64,000 nt of DNA from Candidatus Nomurabacteria bacterium (GCA_943348815.1 CALQYT010000003.1:4679-68678); one strand, 5' to 3'; shown: positions 1,763-62,920, counted from the stretch's first letter. Notes: generated from the letters alone by a model not told the origin. Numbers and translations are program-made.

Positions 1763-1861
1763 TCGTATTTTTAAGAACGCACGTCGCCCGCGACCCAAAC
1801 GATGCAAAGTTCAGATGCCGAAGCCGACGCCTTGGTCGGCTCCCCGACTAAAACGTCGGGG

Positions 1862-3036: not shown

Positions 3037-3078
3037 TAGATTTATTGTATCAGAGGGCGGGGAGCGTATACTGGGCGT

Positions 3079-15145: not shown

Positions 15146-15211
15146 GGTCGCTCTAGAGTACCACAGATTTAGTAGAGGGTCAACTTGCACACTTGACAAG
15201 TAATTGGTAGT

Positions 15212-47711: not shown

Positions 47712-48602
47712 ATGCGATGGGTATTGGTAAGCGGGATCCTACTCCTCCTAGGAATTGGGGCGTTTTTCTTTGCAAAAACTCGCCCCGCGGCGGAAGAGCC
47801 TGGGTGGCGAGCCATGATCGAAAAGGCCGGGCCGGAAAAAGCATACGCACAGTTTGCCGAATCGGTGGCTGCAGAGCCCCCCGGCGAGCAACACACCGCC
47901 GCACACAACTTTGGCGATGCGCTTTACGAGGAAAAAGGGCTCGCCGGACTGTCCGCGTGTGATAGTCGTTTTGGATACGGCTGCTTCCATCAATTGGTTG
48001 GACGAGTTATTGCAGAGCATGGACTCGGGGCAATTGCAGAAATACAACATGTGGTCGGTACATCGAGCGACTCCAACCACGGCGTTGGCCACGGCATACT
48101 CGCCTACCTCGGATACACACTGCCCAAACTCAAACAAGCACTCGCCGTTTGCCCAAGTGGTGGCCCGGCGCCGTGGGATTGCTCGGGGGGTGTGTTTATG
48201 GAATACAACTTCCGTACCATGCTCGGAGAGGGGCCGCGACTACCGGGCAACAATCCGTACGCTCCCTGCGATGCGCTCGAGGGTGTTCAAAAAACAGCTT
48301 GCACTTTTTGGCTGCCCGAATGGTGGGACCGTACTACGTTTGGAGCCGCCGCGACCTCAAGCCAGTCGTTTGCAAACATTGGCGCATACTGCGACGGACT
48401 CCCCAAGGCAGTGCACGGTGCATGTTACGGAGGCACCGGGTACGCGGCTGCCGCTGCGACAGAACAAAATGCGGAAGTCTCGACGTATCTTTGTAACGCA
48501 AGTACAGCCAATACTGCCTATCGTACACTTTGCAATCACTGCGCGGCATATGTCTTTACTACCCGCGGCAAACGTCCAAGCTGCACTCTAAACGAGTTTT
48601 AA
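47712..48602 (+). CDS. Cys/His-rich membrane-anchored protein, distant fifth member of the tandem paralog family at 56.4-61.0 kb
   Basis: N-terminal TM, then QHTAAHNFGDALY (H-x3-H-x2-GD), FGYGCFHQL and SNHGVGHGIL motifs shared with the four tandem paralogs. Many paired Cys. Confidence 0.55.
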   Translation: MRWVLVSGILLLLGIGAFFFAKTRPAAEEPGWRAMIEKAGPEKAYAQFAESVAAEPPGEQHTAAHNFGDALYEEKGLAGLSACDSRFGYGCFHQLVGRVIAEHGLGAIAEIQHVVGTSSDSNHGVGHGILAYLGYTLPKLKQALAVCPSGGPAPWDCSGGVFMEYNFRTMLGEGPRLPGNNPYAPCDALEGVQKTACTFWLPEWWDRTTFGAAATSSQSFANIGAYCDGLPKAVHGACYGGTGYAAAAATEQNAEVSTYLCNASTANTAYRTLCNHCAAYVFTTRGKRPSCTLNEF

Positions 48603-48603
48603 A

Positions 48604-49902
48604 TTACTGGAGAGCTTTGAGAAGGTCCTCGGCCTGTGTGTAATCGCTTTTTAATTGTAGCGCTGCTTTTGCAAAATTACGTGCCGCGGAAGTATCCCCT
48701 TGTTGCCGGGCCAACACGCCGCGCAAATAGGAGACTTCCGGACGCAGTGGAGAAAGTTTTTCCGCTTTCGCAAGCGAAGAAGTCGCCTCAAAATCCGCCT
48801 GTGGATAATTGACTGACGCAAGGGCAATAAAAAGAGAGGCGCGGGAAATGTGACTTGCGTACTCACTTGGGTTTACTCCCACCGCACGATCGGCATATTG
48901 AATTGCATTCGTTATTTGGAATTTCAAAGCACTTTCATCACCCTGCGTCTGATAGGTGGTAAAGGCTGCTTGCAGAATAGCGCGCGACGCATCACGGTCG
49001 TACTCGGAGACCTCCCAGAGTTTTGCTGCGGTTACCAGTGTTTGCGAACCTTCGAACGCCTGCGCCTCAAACGCTGCAACACCTTGGGTGTGTGTCGACG
49101 ACGCTTGTGTTTGGCGGACAAAAATCCATCCCCCGCCGGCAAATACCCCCGTGACCATTAACAATCCCAAGGCCAGCCACCACCTGCGCAGCGTGTACGA
49201 ACTCTCTCCGGCGAGGCGTGCGCCTAACCCGAGCGCTGCTGCGCCAACATACCACATCCACGGCGAGACGATGGTAAAGCATAAAAATCCAAACACTACT
49301 ACCGCCATGCCAATACAGAGTATTTCGGCGATAGAAAAAGATCGTGCACGCACCGCGCGATAGCCGAGCATCACCGCGGGAGTAAATGCCAACAATACCG
49401 TAAGTATCCCTAAGACACCGATCGTGGCGGCAAACGTAGTGAGCGTACTATACCCATAAAAAAACGACGCATCCCACCACGGAACACTGTTGACCTCAAT
49501 CGGGCGGTATCGTTGCCACACCATATCAAACAGATGCGGTCCCTCACCAACAAGCGCATGCGGAAGCGACTCAAGATACAGCGGTGCGGTGACCACCATG
49601 GTTGCCGTAAGAGAGGGTCGTATTTCAACTTTGTCTTTAGACACAAACCAACCTAGACCGAGTGTGGCTATAAGGATACTCGCAAGAGCAATCGAACAAA
49701 TTTTTATGTAGGCGCGCGGCACAAGCGACGCAAGTGCAATCACCAATACAAAAATAAAAATTGATGCGACGGTGCCCACCTCCATCTGCGCACCCCATAT
49801 CGACCACGCTTGTGCCGGCGAGAGCGCGGTCGAAATACTTGCGACCACGAGTAGTGGTATCCCCGAGAGCACCAACCAACTGCGTGGAATCTCGACTCTC
49901 AT
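48604..49902 (-). CDS. Polytopic membrane protein with a C-terminal TPR-like region (O-antigen ligase/Wzy_C-like architecture)
   Basis: About 9 predicted TM helices, followed by a ~130-aa soluble helical-repeat C-terminus (AYAFN..., YASHISRASLFIAL, ARNFAKAALQLKSDY). The preferred start is MRVEIPRSW at 49902. Confidence 0.45.
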   Translation of the reverse strand: MRVEIPRSWLVLSGIPLLVVASISTALSPAQAWSIWGAQMEVGTVASIFIFVLVIALASLVPRAYIKICSIALASILIATLGLGWFVSKDKVEIRPSLTATMVVTAPLYLESLPHALVGEGPHLFDMVWQRYRPIEVNSVPWWDASFFYGYSTLTTFAATIGVLGILTVLLAFTPAVMLGYRAVRARSFSIAEILCIGMAVVVFGFLCFTIVSPWMWYVGAAALGLGARLAGESSYTLRRWWLALGLLMVTGVFAGGGWIFVRQTQASSTHTQGVAAFEAQAFEGSQTLVTAAKLWEVSEYDRDASRAILQAAFTTYQTQGDESALKFQITNAIQYADRAVGVNPSEYASHISRASLFIALASVNYPQADFEATSSLAKAEKLSPLRPEVSYLRGVLARQQGDTSAARNFAKAALQLKSDYTQAEDLLKALQ

Positions 49903-49921
49903 TTCATATATACTAACAGGT

Positions 49922-50320
49922 ATGCGCATGGTAGCCGCCGCTTTGTATATTTTGGGGGGCACAATTGTGGGAGTAAGTATCGGATTGTGGTGTGCCAAAC
50001 CGCTCGCCTCCACTTATACTGACGATCAATTTCTACAAAAAAGAATCTCCCTAGACGACGCGCCGAGGTACGTATCTCTCACCGCGATTGTGGGGTCGAT
50101 CGACCGCAACGCACGCACCATTACCACACAGACAAAGGATCCTTATAGTAAAGAGCGTGTAGGGTTGGTAGTTGGGTACGACGCCAACACCACGGTATTC
50201 AATAACGGAGCCCAAAAATCAGCGGAGACGCTGCGCGCTGGCGACACCATCATTCTTACGGTGGCCCGGACCAGCGGCGTCCTGTATGCCTTTAGTATTG
50301 TTAAGCGCTCATATTTATAG
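49922..50320 (+). CDS. Small TM-anchored protein (paralog a)
   Basis: MRMVAAALYILGGTIVGVSIGLW TM, then a ~110-aa domain. The same architecture and motif order (TLTVR...RLVV.Y...GDRV.V) as the next gene. Confidence 0.4.
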   Translation: MRMVAAALYILGGTIVGVSIGLWCAKPLASTYTDDQFLQKRISLDDAPRYVSLTAIVGSIDRNARTITTQTKDPYSKERVGLVVGYDANTTVFNNGAQKSAETLRAGDTIILTVARTSGVLYAFSIVKRSYL

Positions 50321-50322
50321 TC

Positions 50323-50763
50323 ATGCAGACGTTAAAATACGGACTCGGATTACTAGCGGGGGCAGGAGTCATATCTTTTGTTCTGTTCATGGCCTTCGAA
50401 AATTACTACACCTATATACGAGTGCAGGGACAACTGCATAGACTTGAGGCATCACTCTCAGTCGCCCGGATACTCACGTACGGTATTGTTGATTCTGTCG
50501 ATATATCAAAAAAAACACTCACCGTTCGTATGCCAGACCCGTATGAAGACGGGGCGCAACGACTGGTTGTGATATATCTGTTGCCGGAAACCTATATAGC
50601 CCGACAGACACTACTTGGTGACAAAAAGATGTATACCGGTCTCTCCCCCCAGACACCCACACCGCTTGCGGACATTGCCCCTGGTGAGCGAGTCGCCGTA
50701 TTTGTGCAGCAAAATAACGAGCGATTTGTGGCACTAATCGTACTAGTCGGCAATCCACTATGA
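50323..50763 (+). CDS. Small TM-anchored protein (paralog b)
   Basis: GLGLLAGAGVISFVLFMAF TM, then ~110 aa. It begins 3 nt after the paralog a stop. Confidence 0.45.
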   Translation: MQTLKYGLGLLAGAGVISFVLFMAFENYYTYIRVQGQLHRLEASLSVARILTYGIVDSVDISKKTLTVRMPDPYEDGAQRLVVIYLLPETYIARQTLLGDKKMYTGLSPQTPTPLADIAPGERVAVFVQQNNERFVALIVLVGNPL

Positions 50764-51392
50764 GTGCTCATATCCTACCGGCCTTTGACTCTCCCCAAGC
50801 GCTCAAACCGTTCTTTCCCACAGAAAAAGAGCCTTGGGAAACACTGCCCTTGTTTGTCAAGAAAAAAAACGTCCAATTACTGTTGGGCGTCTTTCCTCTG
50901 TGGACACAGCTTGAGCGTTCTTTTTCTCGTACCGTTCGAACGCTTGGTGTGCCGGTGCTGTCCCTACCCTCGGAACGTATAGCGCTCGTTCCTACACTTG
51001 TCCGCGACCTGCCTGTAGGAAAAATAGTGGCGACAAGCCGCGACCTCCCCGCACTCGAGCGTATGAGTAGCACTCATGCCCCTATGCGCGATCTTATATT
51101 CCACATCGTCCTTACTCCCGAGGAACGTCCAATAATCTCGAGTCTCCAGATTGTTTTTGAAGTCCATCTTGTGCCCGGTGCGGTTGGGCTTTTCCAGTGC
51201 GAAGCACTCGCGAGCAAAAAAGAACTTCTGTTTCACCTGAGTAGCCGTTTTTACTGGGAGTTTGAGGACCAAACACTACTAGTTACCGATGACGCTCGTA
51301 CGGCTCGGTTTTCCCAAGCCCCGCTGCCTCTCCATTACAAAAAAAGAAACGCTCCGTGTCCGTGTGGACACCAGGTAGTCTTGCTTATATGA
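50760..51392 (+). CDS. Hypothetical protein (210 aa)
   Basis: It overlaps neighbours by 4 and 37 nt, consistent with operon packing. No recognisable domain. Confidence 0.4.
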   Translation: MSAHILPAFDSPQALKPFFPTEKEPWETLPLFVKKKNVQLLLGVFPLWTQLERSFSRTVRTLGVPVLSLPSERIALVPTLVRDLPVGKIVATSRDLPALERMSSTHAPMRDLIFHIVLTPEERPIISSLQIVFEVHLVPGAVGLFQCEALASKKELLFHLSSRFYWEFEDQTLLVTDDARTARFSQAPLPLHYKKRNAPCPCGHQVVLLI

Positions 51393-52588
51393 CGGAACTC
51401 GAAAAAGCTTGCACAGCCGCCGACAGAGCCCGGAGTAACCGCTGCTCCTCTTTTTATCGCGATCTCTATCAAGGATTGGCCCAACCTATTACTCCCGAGC
51501 AATGGACCCAAGTCCCCTTCCTTACTAAATCAGACATACTGCGAGTGCCTTTTATGCAGCGATTATTTGTCCCGTGGGAGAAGGTCGATACTATTGCACT
51601 TACGTCGGGGACTACGGGGAGCGGAGTATGCATACTGCCTCGACGGTTTTCTTTAGACTTGCCCTCGGATTTTCCGTATTACAAAGATCATCGGTTAATG
51701 ACCTTCTACTACTACTCCTATCGAATCCGTGCCGAATCAAAAACAATTTCTGGCGATCAGACTCGCTATGAGGCGAGCGCACAGCTTGCGGCACAAGCAG
51801 GCGTGGACGCACTCCACGGATCAATATCGCAATTGATAGCATTTGCTCCTCATGCAAAACGTGCGGGCCTCATTTCGAACATTCGCGCGCTATGTTCGAC
51901 CGGGGAGAGGATAAGCAAGCTCCAGCTCAATACCATACGCACTCTCTATCCTGGTGCCGAATTGCGCACGGTGTATGGTATGCAAGAAGTAAGTGTGGCC
52001 GGCTACTCTCCTCTCGTGCCACGGCCCGATCGCCCGCTCGCAGTAAAGCTCGTCCCCCACTATTATTTTGAAATACTGACTGAAGAAGGCCTTGTGGCGG
52101 ACAGCGGCACCGGCGAGCTGGTAGTGACCTCGCTTGAGGAAGATCCTTTCCCACTGATGCGCTATCGTACGGGCGATAAAGTCTCTGTGTTCGAAGACCG
52201 GGGCGAAAGACTTTTGGAGCCTCTCTCGCGGGTTGAAGAAGAACGGGTCCGTATCGGAGGAGGAGAGATAGTGTTGGACGAATTAGAGCGAGCTATTACT
52301 AAAACATTTGGAGAAAGTGTCGCCGACTTTGAGTGCACGGTAAAAGAGACTCTAGACGGAGAGACTATTCGTAGTGGCCTTGATCTGACCTTGTTTATAA
52401 AAAACAATCCTCCCCCGTGGTCGTCTACCGATGCAGCGCTCAAGCTCGCCACCGAGCTTCAGGCTAATCAACAGCGTACCTATCTTGACGGTATAGTGGC
52501 GGGACTCTATACCCCCATTACTTGCAGCTTCATGCTAGTGGGAGGCACACAGCTCCAAAAAAGGCGCCATCTAAGGGACGGGCGATAA
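51389..52588 (+). CDS. PaaK/CapK/F390-synthetase-like adenylate-forming enzyme
   Basis: LTSGTTGSG (AMP-binding P-loop) and YRTGD motifs. The length (~400 aa) and motif spacing are typical of the phenylacetate-CoA ligase-like family. Confidence 0.65.
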   Translation: MTELEKACTAADRARSNRCSSFYRDLYQGLAQPITPEQWTQVPFLTKSDILRVPFMQRLFVPWEKVDTIALTSGTTGSGVCILPRRFSLDLPSDFPYYKDHRLMTFYYYSYRIRAESKTISGDQTRYEASAQLAAQAGVDALHGSISQLIAFAPHAKRAGLISNIRALCSTGERISKLQLNTIRTLYPGAELRTVYGMQEVSVAGYSPLVPRPDRPLAVKLVPHYYFEILTEEGLVADSGTGELVVTSLEEDPFPLMRYRTGDKVSVFEDRGERLLEPLSRVEEERVRIGGGEIVLDELERAITKTFGESVADFECTVKETLDGETIRSGLDLTLFIKNNPPPWSSTDAALKLATELQANQQRTYLDGIVAGLYTPITCSFMLVGGTQLQKRRHLRDGR

Positions 52589-52604
52589 ATGCTAGTATAT
52601 AGAT

Positions 52605-52805
52605 ATGGAGCTTACTAAAACACTTTCTCTTTTGCCTCTACTGGCGATCGCAAGTATGTTGTTGGTTGGCCGAATTATGTGGACTCCCGAACACGTTTCT
52701 CTCGCTCCTACCGCCCTTGCTCTTGCCGAACAGCCGGGACCGACATGCGATCTTCCCACTCAAGAGAGCACCATTCTTTTTGTCGGTTGCGGGGGGTTTT
52801 TCTGA
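52605..52805 (+). CDS. Small hydrophobic-leader peptide ending ...LFVGCGGFF
   Basis: A 66-aa ORF 17 nt after the adenylating-enzyme gene. Hydrophobic N-terminal half; two Cys; GG followed by FF at the C-terminus. Confidence 0.3.
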   Translation: MELTKTLSLLPLLAIASMLLVGRIMWTPEHVSLAPTALALAEQPGPTCDLPTQESTILFVGCGGFF

Positions 52806-52808
52806 CCT

Positions 52809-53297
52809 ATGGCTCGCATCATAAAGCGATCTCAAAAAAACAAGAAGCCGCGGGTATTTAGCTTCCGTGTGGGAGACGGACACACCGCGAGCGAGCTTTT
52901 GCACGCCGGTCGTTACAACTGGATAGGCGACGTCGTGCGGGAGTTTACCGAATCAAAACAATTCAGAATAGACCCTGAGCCTAAAAAGATCGAGTTGGAG
53001 TTGGTTGAGTTAGACTACGACCCGACCACCACGCAGGTACTCAAAGAATTTAAAAAAAGAGGCCTGGTAGAGCCGACCGAGGAGGACGCCCTTCGATTTG
53101 GAAAAAAATATCCAGATCTCCAACACAAATTTCCTATTGTGTTTCTCAACGCTCACCACCCCTGGCTCGTCGATCGGGGCCTTCCTCGAGTCATTGTACT
53201 GCGACGCTTTTCAGGCGGACGTGGAATCGTAGGATACTGGCTGCAGAGTGGATGGTTTCGTCATTACCGTTTTGCCGGGCGTCGAATACACAAATAA
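52809..53297 (+). CDS. Hypothetical basic protein (162 aa)
   Basis: It starts 4 nt after the small peptide ORF. No recognisable domain. Confidence 0.4.
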   Translation: MARIIKRSQKNKKPRVFSFRVGDGHTASELLHAGRYNWIGDVVREFTESKQFRIDPEPKKIELELVELDYDPTTTQVLKEFKKRGLVEPTEEDALRFGKKYPDLQHKFPIVFLNAHHPWLVDRGLPRVIVLRRFSGGRGIVGYWLQSGWFRHYRFAGRRIHK

Positions 53298-53377: not shown

Positions 53378-54268
53378 ATGTGGAAGATTGTTTTGGGACT
53401 GTGTCTTGCCGTGGCAGGGGTAACGTCTGCCGCAGCAGACCCGTATCCAACCAGGCCCATTCGGATCATCGTACCGTATGGGCCGGGGGTTGCCCCCGAC
53501 GTCATCGTGCGGCTCTACGTCGACGTGATGAAAAGCTCGGGGATACACTTCTTCATCGAAAACCAGCCTCAGGCGTATGGAGTGGTGGGGACCCGCAATC
53601 TCTATCACGCCGAGCCGGACGGCTATACGATGGGAGTCATCTCTGCGAGCCTGCTGTACCCGCACAAAGAGTACGACGCTCAAAGGTTTGAGTACGTGAG
53701 CGTCGTATCGCGTGACAAAATGTTCCTGGTAGTACCAAGCGCCTCACCGGTGCGGACGCTCCAAGAACTTATCGCGAGCGTACCCAAAAACTACAGTGCC
53801 CCCAATCCTGGGGCACAGCGTTTTGCGGCGGAGTTTATGCGCGTAACCGGGCTCACTGCCGTACAACTTCCCTACCGAGGGGGTTCTGCGGCGGCGGTGC
53901 TCGACCTTAAGGTCGGACGCGTCGACTACACCTTCCTCTTCGGTTTCCAGGTCAAACAGGGAATCGATGAGGGAATCTTGCGCCCGCTTGCGGTGGTGGA
54001 CCCGGAACGAAGCTTGTTCATCCCGGAAGTACCAACAATGAACGAGGCGCTCCTCAAAGCCGGCCGGTCTACACTGCCGGTGCGCTATATACAAATGGGG
54101 GTGGTGTTTCCTCCGGGTACACCTCCGACGTACGTACAAAAACTGGCGCAACTTATTTGTACGGCATCGCGCGACGAGGAGTTGCGCGAAAGGCTCCGAA
54201 AAACGTGGGTGGAAGCGATCTGCTCTACCCCAAAGGAGTACCGCGCTTTTGCGTCTGGCTTCCAATGA
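53378..54268 (+). CDS. Bug/TctC-family periplasmic substrate-binding protein (orphan; no tctA/tctB nearby)
   Basis: Signal peptide, then the DPYPTRPIRIIVPYGPG signature, GYTMGV and LPYRGG motifs characteristic of the TctC/Bug family. Confidence 0.75.
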   Translation: MWKIVLGLCLAVAGVTSAAADPYPTRPIRIIVPYGPGVAPDVIVRLYVDVMKSSGIHFFIENQPQAYGVVGTRNLYHAEPDGYTMGVISASLLYPHKEYDAQRFEYVSVVSRDKMFLVVPSASPVRTLQELIASVPKNYSAPNPGAQRFAAEFMRVTGLTAVQLPYRGGSAAAVLDLKVGRVDYTFLFGFQVKQGIDEGILRPLAVVDPERSLFIPEVPTMNEALLKAGRSTLPVRYIQMGVVFPPGTPPTYVQKLAQLICTASRDEELRERLRKTWVEAICSTPKEYRAFASGFQ

Positions 54269-54335: not shown

Positions 54336-55895
54336 ATGCGTACGATTTTCTATACGGCCACGCTTGGTTTTATTGCTTTGGCAGCCTGGCTTATTTTTAA
54401 CAAACAACACGCAGCTGCTTTTTTTTCAGATGTCTTGGAAGCACAGCGTATCTCGGAGACTGTCTCCGTGGGAGGTAGTCCGTACCAAGTGAAAGACGGC
54501 AATGTGTGGCAAAAAGACCGAGTCATTACCGGAGAAGAAGCACTCCCCATTCTTAAACTTACCTACGCGCTCACGCTCGCAAAGCGACACCCTCTTTTTT
54601 CGCTTGAAGGCAGCGACCCATGGGTGCTTGCCACCGCCACCGAAATGCTTGCCCGCGTCCAAGAAGGATACGTCGAGCTCCAATCGACGGCAGCGGAGCA
54701 GGCCTTAGTCCGCAATCTATATCCTATTAATTTTTTGAGCAACGAAGCTCAGACAGAAATTGCCCGCCGCGCCTTCATAGAGTCCCCATCGGACCGAACA
54801 TACCAACGGTACGACGCATCACTCACCCGGACACTCGTGGCGTATAAAAAAGATTTGTCCGTATTTCGAACTGCCTTTACCAAAGCGGTACCTTCCTTGC
54901 ACCGATCTTACTTCACTCTCGAGGGCATCACCGGAACGAGCAGCGCAATCGCATCACTCGATAGTTTGGCCTTGGGTGCACAAAAAACTGCTGCTCTACT
55001 CGATCGACGGACACAATGTCTACGAGACGCAACGTATCTATGTGACTCTCAAGATATACAACTCCCGCAACTGTATGCCCCCGAATCCGCCGCGGTGTCC
55101 AGCAATGCTCCACCCGCAGTGAGTTCTGTCGTTAATGAATATAAGCTTCAACGAACGAGAACATCTCCTGCTATAATCGTGGCCCTCGCACAGAGCGACT
55201 GCGCGCGCGGCCTTGCCGCGCCATATTATTTTGCAGTATATGAGGAGCGACCTTTGCGGTTGAGCGCCATCGATTTTATTAATGACATTCTTTTTCTTCC
55301 GATACGCGATGGGGGAGAAGATTCACTTTTCCATTATTTTATGAGTCGAGGAGCATCCTACTTTCCTCTCGTGCCTACGGCTCCCTACCAGTGTCCATCA
55401 GCGGGAAGCGACTTTAGTCGTATCTACGCGACCCTACAGGTCGCACGCACTCTAGGAAAACAGCCGGGGGTATTATCGGAAGATGACGTTATATCCTCGT
55501 TCAAAACAGCCTTAGACCACGCGGAGACAAACGGCGGTACGCAAAAAGACACGCTCACGGCACTTACTCTGATGCTCCACGACAAAAGTGCTGGGCTAGA
55601 TTGGTTGGTAGAAGAGATAGCGCGCTTTGGGGAAACCAACTTGCGAATGAAGCAGGGCGGTGTACCTATAGCGACAGCTCCGGACTTTTTGTTTCTTGCT
55701 GAAAGTAGTTTCTTTTCTCTGTTTCAGGGGTATAACCTTTCGGTAGGTCAAGGGGTTGGGGTATCTCCCGCGACCGCCGACCCACTCAGACAATACCAAA
55801 AAAACATACACTCGTGGCTCAAAGCGTCGGACGCCACCCGTGATGAAATGAACGTGAGTTTGCGTTTATTTGTTTCGATACATAAACAAATATAA
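54336..55895 (+). CDS. Membrane-anchored hypothetical protein (519 aa)
   Basis: N-terminal TM (TATLGFIALAAWLIF), then a large soluble domain with several Cys. No recognisable domain. Confidence 0.45.
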   Translation: MRTIFYTATLGFIALAAWLIFNKQHAAAFFSDVLEAQRISETVSVGGSPYQVKDGNVWQKDRVITGEEALPILKLTYALTLAKRHPLFSLEGSDPWVLATATEMLARVQEGYVELQSTAAEQALVRNLYPINFLSNEAQTEIARRAFIESPSDRTYQRYDASLTRTLVAYKKDLSVFRTAFTKAVPSLHRSYFTLEGITGTSSAIASLDSLALGAQKTAALLDRRTQCLRDATYLCDSQDIQLPQLYAPESAAVSSNAPPAVSSVVNEYKLQRTRTSPAIIVALAQSDCARGLAAPYYFAVYEERPLRLSAIDFINDILFLPIRDGGEDSLFHYFMSRGASYFPLVPTAPYQCPSAGSDFSRIYATLQVARTLGKQPGVLSEDDVISSFKTALDHAETNGGTQKDTLTALTLMLHDKSAGLDWLVEEIARFGETNLRMKQGGVPIATAPDFLFLAESSFFSLFQGYNLSVGQGVGVSPATADPLRQYQKNIHSWLKASDATRDEMNVSLRLFVSIHKQI

Positions 55896-56384
55896 TACGA
55901 AAGCGCCAAGCAATGCTCCCAAGAGCCCACTTGCGATTACAAACAGGTACGCAAGCGGAACCGTTTGAGATACTGTAAAAGGAAAAACAGCGGCAGCAAT
56001 CTCGTCTCCGGTAACGGTTCTGAAACTCACCTGAAGCGAATACGATCCTCCTTGTTCAAAAGTATAGAGCAACGTGGTGGGCCCGAGCGGTTGGCGTCGG
56101 ATACCTGTTGCAAGTAGAGTATTTTTGTCCTGCGAAACGACGCGTGTCCATACCTCGTCAAATTTGGCCGGCTTTGTTTTAACGGTATCACTCCAGAGAC
56201 TAAAATCGAACCGCGCGCTTTGTCCCGCTGTAATACTGATTGGATCGTACCCAACATCAATGAAGTAGGTAGTACCTACTGGCTGCTCCCACGAAGCGCC
56301 AGTGCTATGAGCACTCACATACAAAGGAGCGCACAAAAGAGCAGCTGCAACGAGAGAGAAAATTATATTCATAAACTTGACCAT
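55866..56384 (-). CDS. Secreted, C-terminally TM-anchored beta-sandwich-like protein, possibly YcnI/CopC-like
   Basis: Signal peptide ...LYVSA, then a mature N-terminus starting with His (HSTGASWEQ). About 120 aa, then a C-terminal TM LAYLFVIASGLLGALLGAFVLYLF and a basic tail. Confidence 0.4.
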   Translation of the reverse strand: MVKFMNIIFSLVAAALLCAPLYVSAHSTGASWEQPVGTTYFIDVGYDPISITAGQSARFDFSLWSDTVKTKPAKFDEVWTRVVSQDKNTLLATGIRRQPLGPTTLLYTFEQGGSYSLQVSFRTVTGDEIAAAVFPFTVSQTVPLAYLFVIASGLLGALLGAFVLYLFMYRNK

Positions 56385-57547
56385 ACGGCCCAGGCTGCTT
56401 CGCACGACTGGGTAGCCAACGGAGCCAGCACACACGAAGTTTGGATTTTTTCCTTAGACCAAAAGTCGGCCAGTTGTTGAAACGCCGCTTCAAAACAGTG
56501 TGTGTGCCACTCGTCCGGCAGCACCTTGCTCGAGCAAAAGGCGTACGCACCTTTTTGTTTATCGTCCGGTGTCCCTGCTTGTACGAGCCCACTTACGTAG
56601 GAACCTAAGCAATATTCTTGCAAGTCGGGGGCAAGCCCCAAACAGGCCGGGACCGCCTGGGCTGCAGTATTGAGCTGCCGCGCAAACATAGCTGCAAAGG
56701 TAGAGATTGTTCGCTGCAGATACTTGCTCGGTGTGTAGCGATACGCCAAATCAATTGCCTCTTGTAGTGTTTTGTCCGGAGTGAGGTTAAACACCACCGA
56801 AGCTAAGTTGGCGTAACACTCCTCCGGCACGCCGTCTGCGCCCAACTCTCTACAGATTTTAAAAGGGTCTTGTTTATCTATCTTTTTTGCATAGTTTTCA
56901 TCATACGAAATGCCGTTGTATGCGCCGCCAGCACATTTAACGAAATCCTCGTCGGTCTCCGCCGCCTGACGACACAAAGAAAGAGTCTGCTGCACTATTG
57001 CCACTGGGTCGCTCCACTCCCGGACGTCGTGGTGTATCACCGAACCATGTCCTACGCCGTGGAAGCATGCAGCACGGGAATAACTTTTTTGTCCGTTGGA
57101 GTCGTCACCTTGCATGGTGGTGCAAAACTCGCCTATCTCCTTGCCTACCTCTTTGCGGTTGCCTGACTCAAATAAAAATTCAGTGACAAATCCGTGGAAG
57201 AAACCAAAATCACAGACCTGCATATCGGGTGTAAAGGAGAGCCTCTCGCCTGCTTTAAACGATGTATAGGCTCGCTCCCCCACTTGGTGCGCAAAGGCGT
57301 GGCACATCTGTATAAAATCAGGCGACTGTTTCGAAAATATTTGGAGCTGTTGCAGAGCTTGAGGTATCTTATCTTCGACAAGCAGCTCCGAGACGGCAGA
57401 GTTCCAACATTGATACTTTGCGGAGAGACTTCCGCTGCACGTAACACTCCCTTGGGAAGCAAACACCCACCCACCCAACCCAACCCCCACTAACATAACC
57501 GGGACCATCCAAAACACTTTCTTCATCTCTACACTATATCTCAACAT
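56369..57547 (-). CDS. Cys/His-rich membrane-anchored protein, tandem paralog 1
   Basis: N-terminal TM, then CHAFAHQVGERAY, CDFGFFHGFV and CFHGVGHGSV motifs plus about 20 Cys. Confidence 0.6.
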   Translation of the reverse strand: MLRYSVEMKKVFWMVPVMLVGVGLGGWVFASQGSVTCSGSLSAKYQCWNSAVSELLVEDKIPQALQQLQIFSKQSPDFIQMCHAFAHQVGERAYTSFKAGERLSFTPDMQVCDFGFFHGFVTEFLFESGNRKEVGKEIGEFCTTMQGDDSNGQKSYSRAACFHGVGHGSVIHHDVREWSDPVAIVQQTLSLCRQAAETDEDFVKCAGGAYNGISYDENYAKKIDKQDPFKICRELGADGVPEECYANLASVVFNLTPDKTLQEAIDLAYRYTPSKYLQRTISTFAAMFARQLNTAAQAVPACLGLAPDLQEYCLGSYVSGLVQAGTPDDKQKGAYAFCSSKVLPDEWHTHCFEAAFQQLADFWSKEKIQTSCVLAPLATQSCEAAWAVWSSL

Positions 57548-58695
57548 GACGGTTGATACTGGGCCGGAAGCAACCTACAGAAGCCTCCTCGACCCTGCGC
57601 ATCTCCAAACAACTGTCGTGCGTCGCGCGCCAAACCACTGTAACATTCTTGGGCGACGCTTCCCTGCGCTCGGGCACAAAAAGAAACCGCCTCTGCTGCT
57701 GCCGATCGACTCTCCTCGACTATTGCCTGCGCGCTGCCTTCATAACACATCCCTTGCCAAGCCACAGGAAAATTATCACACGCATGCTGTGCCTCTGTTG
57801 CATCACCAAGTGACAGGCGACCGATAATCGCAGAGATGCCCCGCCAGCAGTACTCCTCTTCTTGCGCATTAGGATAGCCCGAGCAGTACGCCTGCACGCC
57901 TATACCACGCAGCAACTCTTCGCGGAAGAGCGGCCAGCTTTCTTCCCTGCACGAGCCGATATACTCAGGATCTTTAAACGTCGCACAAAACTGCCGCACC
58001 GTTGTTTTGGTCGGTTTTGTTTTCATCCGAGCAATCAACTGATAGTCATCGGGCTCAAGCGGTTGATAAATTTGCATAAACACGCCTTGGATACAGACCC
58101 GCTGCGCGTCTTTAGGAAGGGTCCGGCGGCACAAATCGAGCGCCTGCGGCAAATTGGCATCGGTAATAAAGTCGTATAAGTGCCCCATGCCGTGCTCGCA
58201 CACCGCTTGGTCAAAGGGTGTGGGCTGCCACCCTGCGTGCGGTTTGCAGGCGAGAGAGAAATCAGGGATTAGTTTTTCTATGGTGGCCACATCCAGCACT
58301 TCGGAGCGGAAGCGTCCGCCCACCACACCATGCAGGTACCCGTTCGAACAAAGACTGTCGGGCGGATTATACGCTAAATCATCGAGCCATCTTGTAGGAT
58401 CTTCGGCCACTACCCGCTCGCCTATTTTGTGCCCAAGCACATGACAAAATTGATAGCTCGGATCTTGCGCACGCAACGCTCGTACCACGTCAAAAAGCTG
58501 CGCCACCCCGTGCTGTGGGTATAGTTGTGGCACCAACGATTCGTAACACACCTCATGTGTCTTTTCTTTGGCACATTGCGCGGCAAACCCGGCAGCGACC
58601 GCGCGCGCGTCAAACGCGCTTGCCTTGAGAATGGAGAGGGTTGCTCCACCGCATAATATAAGTATCAAGGCGAGGACGGCAATTTTTAGACGCAT
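57541..58695 (-). CDS. Cys/His-rich membrane-anchored protein, tandem paralog 2
   Basis: CHVLGHKIGERVV, CSNGYLHGVV and CEHGMGHLYD. It overlaps its neighbours by 7 and 10 nt. Confidence 0.6.
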   Translation of the reverse strand: MRLKIAVLALILILCGGATLSILKASAFDARAVAAGFAAQCAKEKTHEVCYESLVPQLYPQHGVAQLFDVVRALRAQDPSYQFCHVLGHKIGERVVAEDPTRWLDDLAYNPPDSLCSNGYLHGVVGGRFRSEVLDVATIEKLIPDFSLACKPHAGWQPTPFDQAVCEHGMGHLYDFITDANLPQALDLCRRTLPKDAQRVCIQGVFMQIYQPLEPDDYQLIARMKTKPTKTTVRQFCATFKDPEYIGSCREESWPLFREELLRGIGVQAYCSGYPNAQEEEYCWRGISAIIGRLSLGDATEAQHACDNFPVAWQGMCYEGSAQAIVEESRSAAAEAVSFCARAQGSVAQECYSGLARDARQLFGDAQGRGGFCRLLPAQYQPSC

Positions 58696-59837
58696 AGATT
58701 TTGTTTATACCGATCGGGAACACTGGTGCATACCTCTCGCAAACCCACGCTACCATAAAACTGTTTTGTCGCTGAGAGAAGCGTGCTATAGCAGGCGGGT
58801 AGCAGGCTCGCTTGTATATCGGGCGAGCCGCACAGCAGCAGCATGTCGGTATACTCCGCCCCGGGAGTGCCAAACTCTTGTATACCTACAACTACTCCCG
58901 TGATACAAGCATCGGCATCATGGGTAAGAGCGCTGCAGACACCCGAAACTTCTTTCGGTGAGACGATCATTTTTCTACCGCGCGCAGTACTGAAGTACGT
59001 CCCCGCAACACCGCGCACCGCCAACTCTCGATAGTGCGGGTCGGAAATCTCTTCGGTAAATGCTATCGCCTTGCCGAAGTGGTAGTTGGCCGCAAAAGTG
59101 GCGAGCGTATTCATTTGATCGTAACAGGCATCTTTTTCGGTCGTAGTAAAGTTTGGCGAACCACAGAGACTAAAGGGCTCTCCACCTATAGTGAGCTGGT
59201 ACTTAGCATCGCGATACATAAGCGCAACTGCATTAAACACACCCGAGGCGCAGCGGTAGGCGTGGTCTGTGTTCCCACCTGCGACTTCTTTGCATAAAGC
59301 GAGCCCAGGTGCGGCAATCTTTTGCGCGTCGCCCCACACTCTAGGGTCGGTGCCATCGGTCACTCCATGTCCAACACCGTGATAACAGGCGCCCTCAGCG
59401 TAGCCTGGTGGGTTTGGCACGACCGTACCTGCGTAGCTACAAAATGCGCGCGCCTCGTCAAAATTATTATTTTCATAGATAAGCTCCTCCATAAACCCGT
59501 GATAAAAGCCGTACCCGCAATAGCTTGTTTTATCACTGAGTTCTACCCTGCCGGTGGCATGAAATTCTTTATACGCCTCTTTGCCAAGTTCGTGCGTCTC
59601 GGCGTGACACGTTGCCAAATAACCCGGGTCGGCGTTGTACGCCTCGGCGAGCAGATCGAATGCCGCGCTGAGCCCATGGGTTTTTAGTGTTGCGTCGATG
59701 GCTTTGTTGTAACAATTGTTCTTGTCTTGTACGTCTTGTTGGCATACCAAAAGTGGGTCGGCACGCATGTGCCACGCATACACGGCTCCTCCAACCACCA
59801 AAATACACCCTGCCGTAATAAAAATTATTTTTTGCAC
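58686..59837 (-). CDS. Cys/His-rich membrane-anchored protein, tandem paralog 3
   Basis: CHAETHELGKEAY, CGYGFYHGFM and CYHGVGHGVT. Confidence 0.6.
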   Translation of the reverse strand: MQKIIFITAGCILVVGGAVYAWHMRADPLLVCQQDVQDKNNCYNKAIDATLKTHGLSAAFDLLAEAYNADPGYLATCHAETHELGKEAYKEFHATGRVELSDKTSYCGYGFYHGFMEELIYENNNFDEARAFCSYAGTVVPNPPGYAEGACYHGVGHGVTDGTDPRVWGDAQKIAAPGLALCKEVAGGNTDHAYRCASGVFNAVALMYRDAKYQLTIGGEPFSLCGSPNFTTTEKDACYDQMNTLATFAANYHFGKAIAFTEEISDPHYRELAVRGVAGTYFSTARGRKMIVSPKEVSGVCSALTHDADACITGVVVGIQEFGTPGAEYTDMLLLCGSPDIQASLLPACYSTLLSATKQFYGSVGLREVCTSVPDRYKQNLCV

Positions 59838-61015
59838 GTCGGTTGATAGTAAGCGGGCAAAAGAACGCAGACCTCTGTGCGCCCAGGCAGATATTGCGCG
59901 ATCGCATGGGTGAGCTCATCCCAACAGGCACTTTGTGAGCCAGTCGGCGCGTCGGTACAAAAACGTACCGATGCCTGCGGATTGTTTTCTCCGCCCCAAA
60001 ATACCGATTGCAATGCTTCGCGGACGCACGCCTCTTGGCCCTCGTGAGTTTGTGCGAGCGTGCACCACTGTGCCGCCCGTGTGTATTCCTCGTCACCGAA
60101 CTGGTCGACGTGCCGTATATCCCGTGCGCCTGCGATCGTCACGAACTCCTTACCAAAACCGCCATAGCACGCGCGGCGTAATTCCGGGCGCCCTGCAGGC
60201 ACTGCATCGCAAAATCCAAATGCTTTAGGGAACGTGGCTGGATCGGGCGACGTAAGTTCTGCACCCGCTTGGGCAAAGAGCTCGGGCGTCAAATACTCAA
60301 AACAAAATGTTTTTGCACTATCGGGGATCAAGGACCCCAAACAGAGCGCCGTCGGATCGTGCGGGTTAAGATACTTTTCTCGCGCAACGACCCACGCACC
60401 GTGGTCGTGCCCGCCGCCGCCCATGAGTTCCATCACTGCGCCGCCGACGCACTGTGTATATTGTTCGTCGTTGTATTGTGACGTCCCCATGCGCTTGCAA
60501 AAAGAGACCGTCTTTTGTAAGTCGTATCCGAAGTATGCAAACACTCCGTGTCCTAAACCGTGGTAACACATGGTGTACGCACCCAAACCGCCGGGGGCCT
60601 GGCGACAAGCATCGTCTATTTTTTTGAGCGTTGCGTCGCTCGTACCAAATTCGTTGAGTGCGCCTATCACCACCGCGTGTGAGCAGGCGTTACGGAAATC
60701 TTGCGTGCAGTAGGCTATCCCGCCCATACCCTGCTGTTTGTACAACTCATCCCCCACGGCGTGGCCGAGCAAGTGCAAGTCGGTATTAGACGGGAGGTTG
60801 GCGATTTTCAAAACAGCAAAAGCATATACGGCGCCCTTGTCCTTAGCGAGGGCAACAAAACGATCCGATAACTCTTTAAAGCTTTCAACATTCTTACCTA
60901 TACTCTGTGCCTCGGCATACGGCAGCGGATGCGAGCGCCCCAAAAGCATCAACACACCAACCGTAAGCACCGCGGCGGCTATAAGAATTTTTTTTATCCG
61001 CGGCGTCTCAACCAC
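59825..61015 (-). CDS. Cys/His-rich membrane-anchored protein, tandem paralog 4
   Basis: LHLLGHAVGDELY, CSHAVVIGAL and CYHGLGHGVF. Confidence 0.6.
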   Translation of the reverse strand: MVETPRIKKILIAAAVLTVGVLMLLGRSHPLPYAEAQSIGKNVESFKELSDRFVALAKDKGAVYAFAVLKIANLPSNTDLHLLGHAVGDELYKQQGMGGIAYCTQDFRNACSHAVVIGALNEFGTSDATLKKIDDACRQAPGGLGAYTMCYHGLGHGVFAYFGYDLQKTVSFCKRMGTSQYNDEQYTQCVGGAVMELMGGGGHDHGAWVVAREKYLNPHDPTALCLGSLIPDSAKTFCFEYLTPELFAQAGAELTSPDPATFPKAFGFCDAVPAGRPELRRACYGGFGKEFVTIAGARDIRHVDQFGDEEYTRAAQWCTLAQTHEGQEACVREALQSVFWGGENNPQASVRFCTDAPTGSQSACWDELTHAIAQYLPGRTEVCVLLPAYYQPTCKK

Positions 61016-61749
61016 ACTATCAACAATACCGCAGCTCCAAGAACTACGACAGAGGGGAGCGGATTACCGACCATCGGTCGCGCTCCTCCAAAGAGATATT
61101 CTCCCTTGTTAGCAAGCTGCGTAGGCCCTTTTTCAACCTCAGGGATAACCGGGTTAGCAAGAATGTAGGGATCATGTCGGTTCCCTGTTAGTTGCCAGGA
61201 GACTTTACCTCCAGCCACCCCACCTCCGATCGTAAATTGGTTATTTTTCTCTTCCTTTTTTATATAGAGGTTCGGCATGGTGGCCCCCACTGGTTTTAGC
61301 TGGTAGCGAGCATCTCGGTTAAGTAAATCCCAATAGGCGGGGAGTATAACCACCGCCTCGCCTTTGGTGTCCAGTGTGGCGATCCCGTCGTAGAGATTTT
61401 TTGAATCAGGCGACTCAACAAACGAGTGGTAGAGGAGTTTGTTAGCCGCATCGATGGGGTCGTCGATCACAAACGAGCCGGAGCCTTTAGAGAGGTTACC
61501 AACACTGAGAGCCGATGCACCGCTTTGAGCTACTTGAACATTTTTAGTAAAGGTTTTTTGGTACAGGCCTTGATAATACGATTGGTAGTAAGACTGATAA
61601 TACGATTGGTAGTAAGACTGATAATACGATTCGTAGTAGGACTGATAATACGATTCCCCGTACGTTGCAAGTGCGAAGAAAGGTTGTGTTAAGAAGGTTG
61701 CGCCAAAAAGAAAAGTAACAAGAAGGGCGAAGGTGGTCTTTATTTGCAT
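60994..61749 (-). CDS. Secreted protein with a (SYYQ)n repeat, a conserved family-B domain, and a C-terminal TM plus RRRG tail
   Basis: Signal peptide, ESYYQSYYESYYQSYYQSYYQSYYQSYYQ, then FVIDDPIDAANKLLYHSFVESPDSKNLYDG...NLYIKKEEKNNQF...VSWQLTGNRHDPYILANP. It ends with a hydrophobic helix plus RRRG. Confidence 0.6.
   Translation of the reverse strand: MQIKTTFALLVTFLFGATFLTQPFFALATYGESYYQSYYESYYQSYYQSYYQSYYQSYYQGLYQKTFTKNVQVAQSGASALSVGNLSKGSGSFVIDDPIDAANKLLYHSFVESPDSKNLYDGIATLDTKGEAVVILPAYWDLLNRDARYQLKPVGATMPNLYIKKEEKNNQFTIGGGVAGGKVSWQLTGNRHDPYILANPVIPEVEKGPTQLANKGEYLFGGARPMVGNPLPSVVVLGAAVLLIVWLRRRG
61566..61657 (-). repeat. About 3.75 tandem copies of a 24-nt unit encoding YYQSYYQS
   Basis: TTGGTAGTAAGACTGATAATACGA repeated head-to-tail with one variant copy (TTCGTAGTAGGACTG...). 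Confidence 0.7.
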
Positions 61750-62288
61750 AGTGGTTCAAAAATACACTCACCTTTAGGTACCGACTGCGTTGGGCCCTTT
61801 TCCACCTCGACCGGTTGCGGATGGGCCAGAATGTATGGGTCGTGGCGCGTACCAGTAACTTGCCAGGACACGGTGCCGCCAGGAGCGCCTCCTCCAATAC
61901 TAAACTGGTTATTCTTTTCCTCCTGCTTGATATAGAGGTTGGGCATGGGCTGCTCTAATGCAAAAAATTGATAACGCGCATCTTTGTTTAGAGCATCCCA
62001 ATACGCCGGCAGCACGATAGTCACTTCCCCTTTAGAATCGAGCGTTGCAGTACCGTCATACAAGTTTTCAGGAGCATTAGACTCTACGAAGGAGTGATAC
62101 AAGATTTTGTTAGCGGGATCGAGCGGGTGATCGATAGCAAAAGTGCCGGAGGTTTTGGTGAGGGTACCCACGACCGTGAGATTACCTTTTATCTTAACGC
62201 TCCCCGTCACATTGATCGTCGCCGCAAGACCTACCAACGGCAAACACAACAAAAACAGCACGATGCTTTGGTAGAGTTTATTTCGCAT
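61740..62288 (-). CDS. Secreted family-B paralog 2
   Basis: Signal peptide (LYQSIVLFLLCLPLVGLAA), then FAIDHPLDPANKILYHSFVESNAPENLYDG...NLYIKQEEKNNQF...VSWQVTGTRHDPYILAHP. Confidence 0.6.
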   Translation of the reverse strand: MRNKLYQSIVLFLLCLPLVGLAATINVTGSVKIKGNLTVVGTLTKTSGTFAIDHPLDPANKILYHSFVESNAPENLYDGTATLDSKGEVTIVLPAYWDALNKDARYQFFALEQPMPNLYIKQEEKNNQFSIGGGAPGGTVSWQVTGTRHDPYILAHPQPVEVEKGPTQSVPKGECIFEPLCK

Positions 62289-62895
62289 AGAGATCGGGGA
62301 AGAGATAATCGCCCTGTTGGACAAGGGTATCCGGACCTTTCTTGACCTCAGGCACTATCGGGTTGGCAAGAATAAATGGATCATGCCGAATACCGGTTAC
62401 TTGCCAAGAAATCTTGCCGCCCGGTGCGCCGCCGGCAATTTTGAGTACCGGCGAGCCAAATAGGCCGAAGAACTTTCTACCCACTTCGGAAGTAAGGTGC
62501 AAATTCGGCATCGGTTGTCCTATCGGCGTTGCAAGGTAGCGAAAGTCTTTATTGAGCGCGAGGAAATATTCTGGCAGTTCGATAGTGACTTCTCCGTTGT
62601 TATTGAGTGTTTCGAGACCATCATAAATATTTTTAACCTCTGGCGACTCAACATTGAAGTGATAAAGCAACTTGTTTTTTGGATCAAGTGGATCGTCGAT
62701 GACGAAGCTTTTAGCGCCGGCAGTGACCGACCCCGTGACATTGGTGGAGGTACCCAAAAAGCTTGTACTGTAGCTTAGTGTAATGACGTTGTGACTAAAA
62801 TCGGCCTGTGCATCACAGGGGAGCGATCCGGCGGCAAAAGCACACGCCGTCATTACGAACACCGACCAAAAGATACGCGGGTGAGACATCTTCAT
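62278..62895 (-). CDS. Secreted family-B paralog 3
   Basis: Signal peptide (IFWSVFVMTACAFAAGS), then FVIDDPLDPKNKLLYHFNVESPEVKNIYDG...ISWQVTGIRHDPFILANP. A TATACT -10 lies upstream. Confidence 0.6.
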   Translation of the reverse strand: MKMSHPRIFWSVFVMTACAFAAGSLPCDAQADFSHNVITLSYSTSFLGTSTNVTGSVTAGAKSFVIDDPLDPKNKLLYHFNVESPEVKNIYDGLETLNNNGEVTIELPEYFLALNKDFRYLATPIGQPMPNLHLTSEVGRKFFGLFGSPVLKIAGGAPGGKISWQVTGIRHDPFILANPIVPEVKKGPDTLVQQGDYLFPDLYAK

Positions 62896-62920
62896 CTCTT
62901 CTAGTATACTGTACGACCAT

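Follow-up and report, generated by a model that had tools for sequence, protein, structure and literature searches.

A PaaK-like ligase and a cysteine-tailed membrane microprotein form a conserved, so far undescribed module in Patescibacteria

The Patescibacteria (Candidate Phyla Radiation) are abundant and mostly uncultured, the functions of their genes are largely unknown, and the ways in which they build and modify their envelope and communicate with their hosts are poorly understood. LuxE, an enzyme related to the phenylacetate-CoA ligase PaaK, moves an acyl group from acyl-AMP to a cysteine near the protein C-terminus, and in the photoactive yellow protein pathway (TAL, pCL and a cysteine thioester) an unsaturated aryl acid is thioesterified to a cysteine. 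In the Dlt system the membrane microprotein DltX, which is served by an ANL-superfamily ligase, has an invariant tyrosine within an extracellular C-terminal FXYXXF motif, and this tyrosine carries D-alanine from the DltA/DltC/DltB side to DltD (PMC12148441). Here an operon is described that encodes a PaaK-like adenylate-forming ligase together with a 66-aa membrane microprotein ending in a cysteine motif. It lies on the plus strand at 49922-53297 of a 64,000-nucleotide stretch from a Candidatus Nomurabacteria bacterium (GCA_943348815.1 CALQYT010000003.1:4679-68678), referred to below as the window. In its logic the pair comes closest to combinations of an adenylating enzyme with a carrier, such as DltA-DltX, or to LuxE.

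The ligase gene (399 aa, 51389-52588) begins with an ATG that overlaps the preceding stop codon, this start having been used in place of the GTG at 51356 that gives the mechanically longest version of the open reading frame (ORF). The microprotein gene (66 aa, 52605-52805) follows it. A preliminary description of the window had proposed that a carboxylate-activating enzyme acts with a small peptide as its substrate or carrier, and comparative genomics fits this proposal. Gene maps of related loci showed that the ligase and the peptide are the only genes common to all of them, which argues that the two are partners. The related set consisted of 42 loci of the window-type ligase clade, which were searched with a hidden Markov model (HMM) of the peptide family; the control set comprised 123 loci (1.63 Mb), each around a PaaK-like ligase outside this clade and taken from other phyla. 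A peptide match was found no more than 5.3 kb from the ligase (median 1.5 kb) in 35/42 related loci and in 0/123 control loci. The seven misses were on contigs that are very short (approximately 2-5.6 kb) or that end beside the ligase on the side where the peptide is expected, and all of the contigs carrying a ligase relative with enough flanking DNA have a small ORF of the same design. The ratio of non-synonymous to synonymous substitution rates (dN/dS) of the peptide gene in the closest pairs was 0.10, 0.10 and 0.21, with synonymous sites near saturation. Across the 35 loci the peptides share 13-30% overall identity, their C-terminal motif is invariant and the stop codon keeps its position, and in no locus is the peptide fused to a neighbour. 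It follows from the distribution of HMM matches and the low dN/dS that the small ORF is no chance reading frame; it is a real protein-coding gene under purifying selection. The possibility that it represents a frameshifted N-terminus of the downstream gene was rejected, since the stop is kept in all loci, the downstream genes differ and no fusions were seen.

All 38 database relatives of the peptide are annotated as 'hypothetical protein' and are without a Pfam domain, and neither Pfam nor NCBIfam holds a model for any of the peptide subfamilies. Full-text literature searches found no paper describing the peptide. Literature searches likewise found nothing relevant on thiolactones, autoinducing peptides, histidine ammonia-lyase or apolipoprotein N-acyltransferase in Patescibacteria, on PaaK-like enzymes in connection with peptides or on the structure 9S3L. 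The ligase and the cysteine-tailed membrane microprotein thus make up a genuine two-component module that is conserved, has not been described so far and belongs to no named system. According to record titles, its lineages include Kaiserbacteria, Adlerbacteria, Nomurabacteria, Saccharibacteria, Paceibacterota and others. Two module contigs (L011 and L020) are labelled as metagenome-assembled genomes of 'uncultured Gammaproteobacteria'; an identical copy of the L011 peptide is annotated as Candidatus Daviesbacteria, which suggests mis-binning.

In the window the microprotein has a hydrophobic N-terminal segment resembling a transmembrane (TM) helix or signal anchor, a linker with a second cysteine and the C-terminus ILFVGCGGFF followed directly by the stop codon; an example of the C-terminal 12-mer is QESTILFVGCGGFF. 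This sequence, including the stop after GCGGFF, is identical in three independent assemblies. The design of the family is a basic N-terminus, a single hydrophobic segment of approximately 18 residues, a variable linker that usually contains one cysteine, and the terminal motif F-x-[G/S]-C-x-x-h-h (h, hydrophobic) with an optional D, E or Q before the stop. Both the TM segment and the C-terminal motif are found in all family members. Among 53 distinct sequences the cysteine is invariant (position -5 from the end in the 66-aa ORF), the phenylalanine three residues before it is present in 51 (-8 from the end in the 66-aa ORF) and glycine or serine immediately precedes it in 52. Exactly four residues follow the cysteine in 48/53 and the other five carry one extra residue, which is acidic in four cases and glutamine in one. 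The observed tails are CGGFF, CGGFI, CGGIF, CGGIY, CGGLF, CGGVF, CGDIY, CNGFF, CAVIF, CNSIL, CNSII, CNSLL, CNSVL, CSSLI, CSSRI, CNSIT, CGSAI and CNNMF and, with the extra residue, CGGFFD, CGGFWD, CGGFLE, CGGFLD and CGDFFQ. The GG near the C-terminus, which the preliminary description had singled out as a motif, is therefore not the conserved feature, as clades show CNSIL, CSSLI, CNNMF or CAVIF; the cysteine and the phenylalanine are conserved instead. A ubiquitin-like GG carrier of the ThiS/MoaD type with an E1 enzyme was rejected for a related reason, the GG being internal and replaced by NS, SS, NN or AV in other clades, and a ThiF/MoeB E1-like enzyme was rejected because the enzyme of the module is of the ANL/PaaK type. 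In most members a second cysteine lies 13-30 residues upstream of the invariant one; it is missing in loci L009 and L021. The N-terminal flank of the hydrophobic segment is the more positive one in 43/53 sequences, and in these the positive-inside rule predicts an N-in topology with the C-terminal tail outside the cell.

Two variations on the peptide gene were noted. A tandem duplication in locus L016 (3053-5333) contains identical peptide genes at 3053-3271 and 4474-4692 and includes an upstream gene for a 210-aa membrane-anchored protein, of which the two copies are 40% identical. A second peptide subfamily, with tails of the form ENPNKxLF[IV][SG]CGGF[FLW][DE], is present in L001 (1789-2857), where the gene lies between two DctP genes and a gene for a 288-aa RnfD/NqrB-like membrane protein (Pfam E 1.5e-9). 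In L014 this subfamily pairs with its own copy of the ligase.

The ligase carries the motifs TSGTTG (TSGTTGSG in the window), YGxxE and YRTGD, of which the first and last had already been recognised in the preliminary description, as well as a C-terminal lysine (Lys391). An alignment of seven sequences retains TSGT(T/S), Y-G-x-x-E, F-P-L-x-R-Y-R-T-G-D and the C-terminal lysine, and the P-loop, hinge and catalytic lysine of the ANL core are all present. Matches to existing family models are weak. Pfam AMP-binding scores 26.9 bits, under its cut-off of 29.9, and NCBIfam gives only weak matches to DVU_1553-family and PaaK models, the PaaK equivalog (TIGR02155) scoring 33 bits against a cut-off of 646.3 and the haloarchaeal PaaK model 29 against 700. 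Pfam LuxE gave no match at E <= 0.1. A word-indexed search of 5.8 billion proteins returned only eight relatives of 25-37% identity, and the nearest relatives are all within the same patescibacterial module. When a profile of the ligase was compared with the PDB, the best matches were 9s3l (E 3e-24, residues 17-325) and 4r1l (E 1e-20, residues 4-366), with further matches to PaaK1 (2y27, E 3e-15), AjiA1 (6wuq) and 6siw. The scanned ORFs of the window include no paa genes, the neighbours being membrane or surface proteins and binding proteins. A true phenylacetate-CoA ligase PaaK was rejected on these scores and on the lack of a paa operon; the ligase is set apart from bona fide PaaK enzymes. 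It appears, on its sequence, to be a catalytically intact member of a divergent, Patescibacteria-specific subfamily of PaaK-like adenylate-forming enzymes. In 17 kb of a Kaiserbacteria contig (L009, 2990-19527) there are at least four paralogs or fragments of the ligase, and three copies of the 519-aa family described below are also present.

Directly upstream of the ligase the window encodes a 210-aa protein (50760-51392, plus strand), previously set down as hypothetical. Homologs of this partner occupy the same position in L001, L002, L006, L007, L009, L013, L014 and L175. An exhaustive HMMER search gave 95 cluster representatives, mostly of 190-290 aa with a few shorter; one of 1645 aa matched over approximately 40 residues, and none is of ligase length. 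A profile of five sequences found nothing when compared with the ligase (hhalign probability 0.5%) or the PDB, and an AlphaFold2 model from the single sequence was unusable (predicted local distance difference test, pLDDT, 34). With a profile of 66 sequences, hhalign aligned the partner to the ligase profile over 174 collinear columns (E 1.4e-4, probability 53%), corresponding to ligase residues 79-271, from just after the P-loop to the hinge. The seven PDB profile matches of the partner are weak but all are to ANL/PaaK enzymes, and its terminal CxCG aligns to the CSCG that follows the hinge in 9s3l. The partner has neither a P-loop nor a C-terminal domain. These profile alignments suggest, with moderate confidence, that the 210-aa protein is a truncated, catalytically dead paralog of the ligase. 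Ligases that have a partner are mostly without a CxCG of their own, whereas most of those that lack a partner retain it. The near-invariant residues H136, C147, H159, C200 and C202 of the partner might bind a metal. In L009 one ligase paralog has kept the P-loop and consists of the N-domain only, stopping right after CSCG.

In the clade to which the window belongs the gene order is partner, ligase, peptide and then one or two copies of a gene for a 519-aa protein (family F519), or alternatively peptide, 519-aa protein (not always present) and ligase. F519 genes are found as one or two copies beside the peptide gene in L001, L002, L009-L015, L020 and L175, and the window copy (54336-55895, plus strand), downstream of the module, encodes a protein with an N-terminal TM anchor. 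F519 gave no Pfam or PDB match, a word-indexed search returned one relative only, and an AlphaFold2 model based on an alignment of two sequences was unusable (pLDDT 42). In the window's clade F519 is a conserved third member of the module, and it is probably extracytoplasmic. Genes for solute-binding proteins recur in the same neighbourhoods. In the window a protein of the TctC family (tripartite tricarboxylate transporter; 53378-54268, plus strand, Pfam TctC E 6.7e-34) lies between the operon and F519; TctC and/or DctP binding proteins also flank the module in L001, L002, L006, L013 and L175, and ABC permease or binding-protein genes adjoin it in L007, L015 and L020.

A sister clade, in which the peptide tails are CNSIL or CSSLI, has a different set of neighbours. 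Here the ligase gene is followed by a gene for an Lnt-like protein (apolipoprotein N-acyltransferase, with LNT_N and CN_hydrolase domains) in every locus long enough to show it, and the two genes overlap by 8-13 nt in L016, L017 and L019, the loci for which gene coordinates were read. F519 and the Lnt-like gene are mutually exclusive across the mapped loci. Many sister-clade loci also contain a divergently placed gene for an ICMT/PEMT-like methyltransferase, and many have a gene of the aromatic-lyase family immediately upstream of the peptide gene. This lyase has the MIO motif GSVGASGDL and a serine-histidine pair within LQYNLVRSHA; such an S-H selectivity pair marks histidine ammonia-lyases, the product of which is urocanate. 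Neither Lnt nor ICMT is present in the loci of the window's clade. In a third group of loci, with the peptide tail CNNMF, an FmdE-domain protein is encoded between the peptide and the ligase. One sister-clade locus (L093, 2024-9213) contains an eight-gene cassette whose boundaries are marked by its insertion between rplE and rpsH of the ribosomal protein operon. The cassette encodes the Lnt-like protein, the ligase, the ICMT/PEMT-like methyltransferase, three unannotated membrane proteins, the MIO enzyme and the peptide (CSSLI/CNSIL), and it was also found in L017, L018, L019, L088 and L110-L115.

Compared with PaaK-like aryl-acid ligases (COG1541), the module ligase belongs by profile to the same fold family, has the same core motifs and is of similar size (approximately 400 aa), and it would be expected to share their chemistry, namely formation of an acyl-AMP followed by transfer to a thiol or amine. 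It differs from PaaK in being paired with a cysteine-tailed microprotein and, in the window's clade, with a truncated dead paralog encoded upstream. The pairing resembles the Dlt system in several respects. An ANL-superfamily ligase is encoded with a microprotein of approximately 50-75 aa that has one N-terminal TM helix; the microprotein has an invariant nucleophile, putative in the module, in an aromatic-flanked motif at a C-terminus that is extracellular in DltX and predicted to be so in the module; and a membrane-anchored extracytoplasmic transferase, putative in the module, is also encoded in the locus. In place of the tyrosine of FXYXXF in DltX, however, the module has a cysteine in F-x-[G/S]-C-x-x-h-h, its ligase is PaaK-like and not DltA-like, and no DltC, MBOAT protein (DltB) or SGNH protein (DltD) was found among the neighbours scanned by Pfam. 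Whereas the LuxE cysteine is on the enzyme itself, that of the module is on a separate microprotein, and there are no LuxC or LuxD partners. The sister clade further recalls the photoactive yellow protein pathway in encoding an MIO ammonia-lyase, an acid-activating ligase and a cysteine-bearing acceptor, although the lyase is of the S-H histidine type and absent from the window's clade, and the acceptor is a membrane peptide of 70 aa and not a PAS domain.

The reading of these data that we favour, tentatively, is that a small acid, once activated by the ligase, is transferred to the invariant cysteine, so that the microprotein would act as a DltX-like, cysteine-based acyl shuttle. The cytoplasmic ligase would convert a small carboxylic acid, probably aromatic or heteroaromatic, into its acyl-AMP. 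In the window's clade the neighbouring TctC/DctP-type binding proteins might assist the uptake of this acid, and in part of the sister clade it might be made by the histidine-ammonia-lyase-type enzyme. The thiol of the invariant cysteine, in the flexible F-x-G-C-G-G-F-F tail, would then take the place of CoA to give an acyl thioester, and the microprotein would thereby serve as a membrane-tethered acyl carrier, a cysteine-based equivalent of the DltX 'acyl shuttle' or of the cysteine near the C-terminus of LuxE. Finally the activated group would be handed to an extracytoplasmic transferase, perhaps the 519-aa protein in the window and, for the sister clade, the Lnt-like N-acyltransferase. This transferase would move the group onto an envelope acceptor. 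S-acylation is favoured because, to our knowledge, the characterised relatives of the ligase all act on small aryl or alkyl acids, which they activate and pass to a thiol or amine, and because the nearest solved relatives (PaaK, AjiA1 and 6siw) form thioesters or amides from aryl acids. The presence next to the module of two unrelated carboxylate-binding families (TctC and DctP) or of an MIO lyase points to a small acid as the substrate. It is also in agreement with S-acylation that the conserved partner in the sister clade is an outside-facing acyltransferase of a type that has an acyl-cysteine enzyme intermediate, and that the architecture of the peptide matches that of DltX.

Several points weigh against the shuttle. 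If the tail lies outside the cell, as predicted, a cytoplasmic ligase could reach it only before membrane insertion; loading at this stage is plausible, as a 66-aa protein would leave the ribosome before it is targeted. Pfam scans of the neighbouring genes revealed neither an MBOAT-like conduit nor a carrier protein. The second cysteine that most members share could form a disulfide with the invariant cysteine outside the cell, leaving no free thiol. The lyase and the binding proteins are each present in subsets of the loci only, and the Lnt-like proteins retain the lysine and cysteine of the nitrilase-type triad but the canonical glutamate has apparently been replaced. In addition, the C-x4 spacing in 48/53 sequences and the small-small-hydrophobic-hydrophobic character of the tails (CGGFF, CSSLI, CNSIL, CNGFF, CNNMF) would fit at least equally well with a thiolactone. 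On this alternative, the main rival of the shuttle and one that we regard as unlikely, the ligase would adenylate the C-terminal carboxylate of the peptide itself and the cysteine would close a five-residue ring like that of an autoinducing peptide (AIP) without AgrB. Once exported, the ring would either act as a signal or keep the C-terminus energised, and in the latter case the Lnt-like or 519-aa transferase could couple that C-terminus to an amine. AIP rings of similar appearance are known (CSSLF, CDFIM, CNAYF, STGFF). The residue that follows the ring in AgrD is acidic, and the five longer tails of the module end in D, E or Q; these tails would, however, also give a different ring size. 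Like AgrD, the microprotein is a small precursor with an N-terminal membrane-associating helix and a cysteine followed by four residues. It has 0-1 residue past the would-be ring and therefore none of the charged recognition tail whose cleavage drives cyclisation in AgrD. An enzyme that uses ATP would be required to provide the bond energy, and one is always adjacent. Against a thiolactone, adenylation of a peptide C-terminus is not known to us for any enzyme of the ANL/PaaK type. Whereas AIPs are hypervariable, the motif shows strong conservation between genera, too strong for a strain-specific signal, and the phenylalanine at -3 and glycine or serine at -1 relative to the cysteine are conserved, unlike in AgrD. 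The system also has an ATP-dependent ligase where Agr has AgrB, AgrC and AgrA, no homologs of which were seen among the neighbours scanned (no Pfam matches to AgrB, HisKA or response regulators in the neighbours of the window or of the clade B loci), and cyclisation would leave the adjacent lyase and carboxylate-binding proteins without a role.

It is likewise unlikely that the ligase does not act on the peptide at all and that the peptide, exported or membrane-anchored and looped by a disulfide, instead serves the extracytoplasmic proteins of the island as a subunit, ligand or regulator. On this reading the ligase would make an acyl-CoA or acyl-AMP with which that pathway modifies lipids or the envelope. 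CoA is the normal acceptor of PaaK-like enzymes, the predicted N-in, C-out topology and the second cysteine in most members would permit such a disulfide, and the peptide gene is found beside the 519-aa gene as often as beside the ligase gene; as carboxylate binders, TctC and DctP proteins might in principle also accommodate the free C-terminus of a peptide. This would leave unexplained why the pairing of ligase and peptide holds across clades whose other genes are wholly different and why extra ligases and peptides occur as matched sets (two pairs in L014, several ligases in L009), and the lack of the upstream cysteine in L009 and L021 argues that a disulfide is not the universal role. Less probable still is a lipidation of the lipobox or CaaX kind, in which the cysteine thiol would be lipidated and the peptide processed to a small lipopeptide, the ligase supplying the acid and, in the sister clade, the Lnt-like and ICMT-like proteins carrying out N-acylation and carboxyl methylation. 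The sequence [F]-x-[G/S]-C does resemble the lipobox L-[ASTVI]-[GAS]-C, the Lnt-like and ICMT/PEMT-like genes are adjacent to the module in the sister clade, and Patescibacteria, which are not known to synthesise lipids, might need a ligase for scavenged acids. However, the motif has phenylalanine at -3 and lies at the extreme C-terminus, 4-5 residues from the stop and 30-50 residues past the hydrophobic segment, whereas a lipobox closes a signal peptide; the cysteine at -5/-6, followed by four or five residues, is not that of a CaaX substrate. Moreover, no Lgt, Lsp, prenyltransferase or CaaX protease (CPBP) was seen in the loci, and the window's clade is without Lnt and ICMT, the ICMT/PEMT-like gene being present only in the sister clade. 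As for the view that the small ORF is a chance or non-coding one beside an ordinary PaaK gene with unrelated neighbours, the lack of an obvious Shine-Dalgarno sequence before the ATG and of any database annotation might speak for it, but it is effectively refuted by the conservation of the gene (35 loci, 0/123 controls, dN/dS 0.1-0.2, stop position kept), and an Rfam scan gave no match on the ORF.

The module is compact, consisting of an ATP-dependent ligase and a cysteine-tailed microprotein with clade-specific genes whose putative roles are the supply of an acid and transfer on the outside of the cell. If the cysteine does carry a thioester, whether of an acyl group or of the peptide's own C-terminus, this would be a new way to carry ATP-derived bond energy across a membrane, namely on a microprotein. 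Such a module would widen the DltX principle from tyrosine esters to cysteine thioesters and would offer a first way into the function of a large island of surface proteins that lack annotation. A thiolactone, should this alternative be correct, would mean that Patescibacteria make AIP-like cyclic peptides by an ATP-driven route independent of AgrB. It would also be the first case of an ANL/PaaK-type enzyme that macrocyclises a peptide, and the ring would be a signal or a store of bond energy for ATP-free ligation outside the cell.

In the window the module is part of a tightly packed plus-strand operon of six ORFs, as the preliminary description had it, with successive junctions of +2, -4, -4, +16 and +3 nt and hence no gap or overlap above 16 nt. 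The first two ORFs each encode an N-terminal TM segment. ORF1 (132 aa, 49922-50320; public gene calls start at 49928) and ORF2 (146 aa, 50323-50763) had been called small TM paralogs, and a weak likeness between them is indeed detectable (BLASTP E 1e-4, 13/31 identities). The sixth ORF (52809-53297) encodes a basic protein of 162 aa without a TM segment. ORF1 and ORF2 have no match in Pfam or NCBIfam, nor ORF1 in PADLOC, and the 162-aa protein has none in Pfam, NCBIfam, PADLOC or the PDB. Because none of the three has a tblastn counterpart in any related locus, they are lineage-specific additions outside the conserved module; only the 210-aa partner, the ligase and the microprotein are conserved elsewhere. 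The best promoter-like site of the region is in the 80-nt gap between the 162-aa gene and the TctC gene. The window shares gene order with a Candidatus Adlerbacteria contig (L010), with protein identities of up to 78%, which points to an origin within the Patescibacteria.

A connection with capsule synthesis, suggested earlier on the grounds of a CapK-like ligase and a nearby CapA homolog, did not hold. The gene concerned encodes a PGA_cap (CapA-like) protein (28478-29449, minus strand, Pfam E 2.9e-51) and lies 21 kb from the module, between rpsB (ribosomal protein S2) and a release-factor gene; housekeeping genes separate it from the module, no other capsule genes were seen around it and it is not syntenic in related loci. 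A protein encoded at 48604-50013 had been described as Wzy-like with TPR repeats; the TPR matches stand, and Pfam gives TPR only. PADLOC gave no defence-system match in the window and Rfam a tRNA as its sole match. The remainder of the window holds housekeeping genes, among them those for DnaE, GyrB, PheST, transketolase, GAPDH and aldolase. Its only low-GC stretch (GC 0.45 at 38-40 kb) contains an IS200-like Y1 transposase gene (38759-39436, plus strand), relatives of which are also present in L017 and L018. A single ORF at 830-1807 (minus strand) combines a NusB domain with a NUDIX hydrolase domain, and a sortase-domain protein (14528-15199, minus strand, Pfam E 1.2e-18) is encoded among unannotated ORFs.

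Two giant surface proteins are predicted in the window, of 1382 aa (8122-12270, minus strand) and 1883 aa (41050-46701, minus strand). The latter has long glycine-rich runs and repeated Ig-like segments, and the next gene (46723-47904) encodes a protein of 393 aa in which a bacterial surface Ig-like domain is present. Four tandem paralogs of approximately 385-396 aa (56369-61015, minus strand) and a 296-aa relative (47712-48602, plus strand) have an N-terminal TM anchor and cysteine-rich repeats of the type C-x2-G-x2-H-G, without a Pfam match; homologs of these cysteine-rich proteins cluster around the ligase module in L001, L002, L006, L009, L010, L012 and L013. A further three tandem paralogs of 194-251 aa (60994-62988, minus strand), also without a Pfam match, have counterparts of 50-65% identity, likewise arranged as tandem triplets, in Adlerbacteria (L010), Nomurabacteria (L012) and L013.

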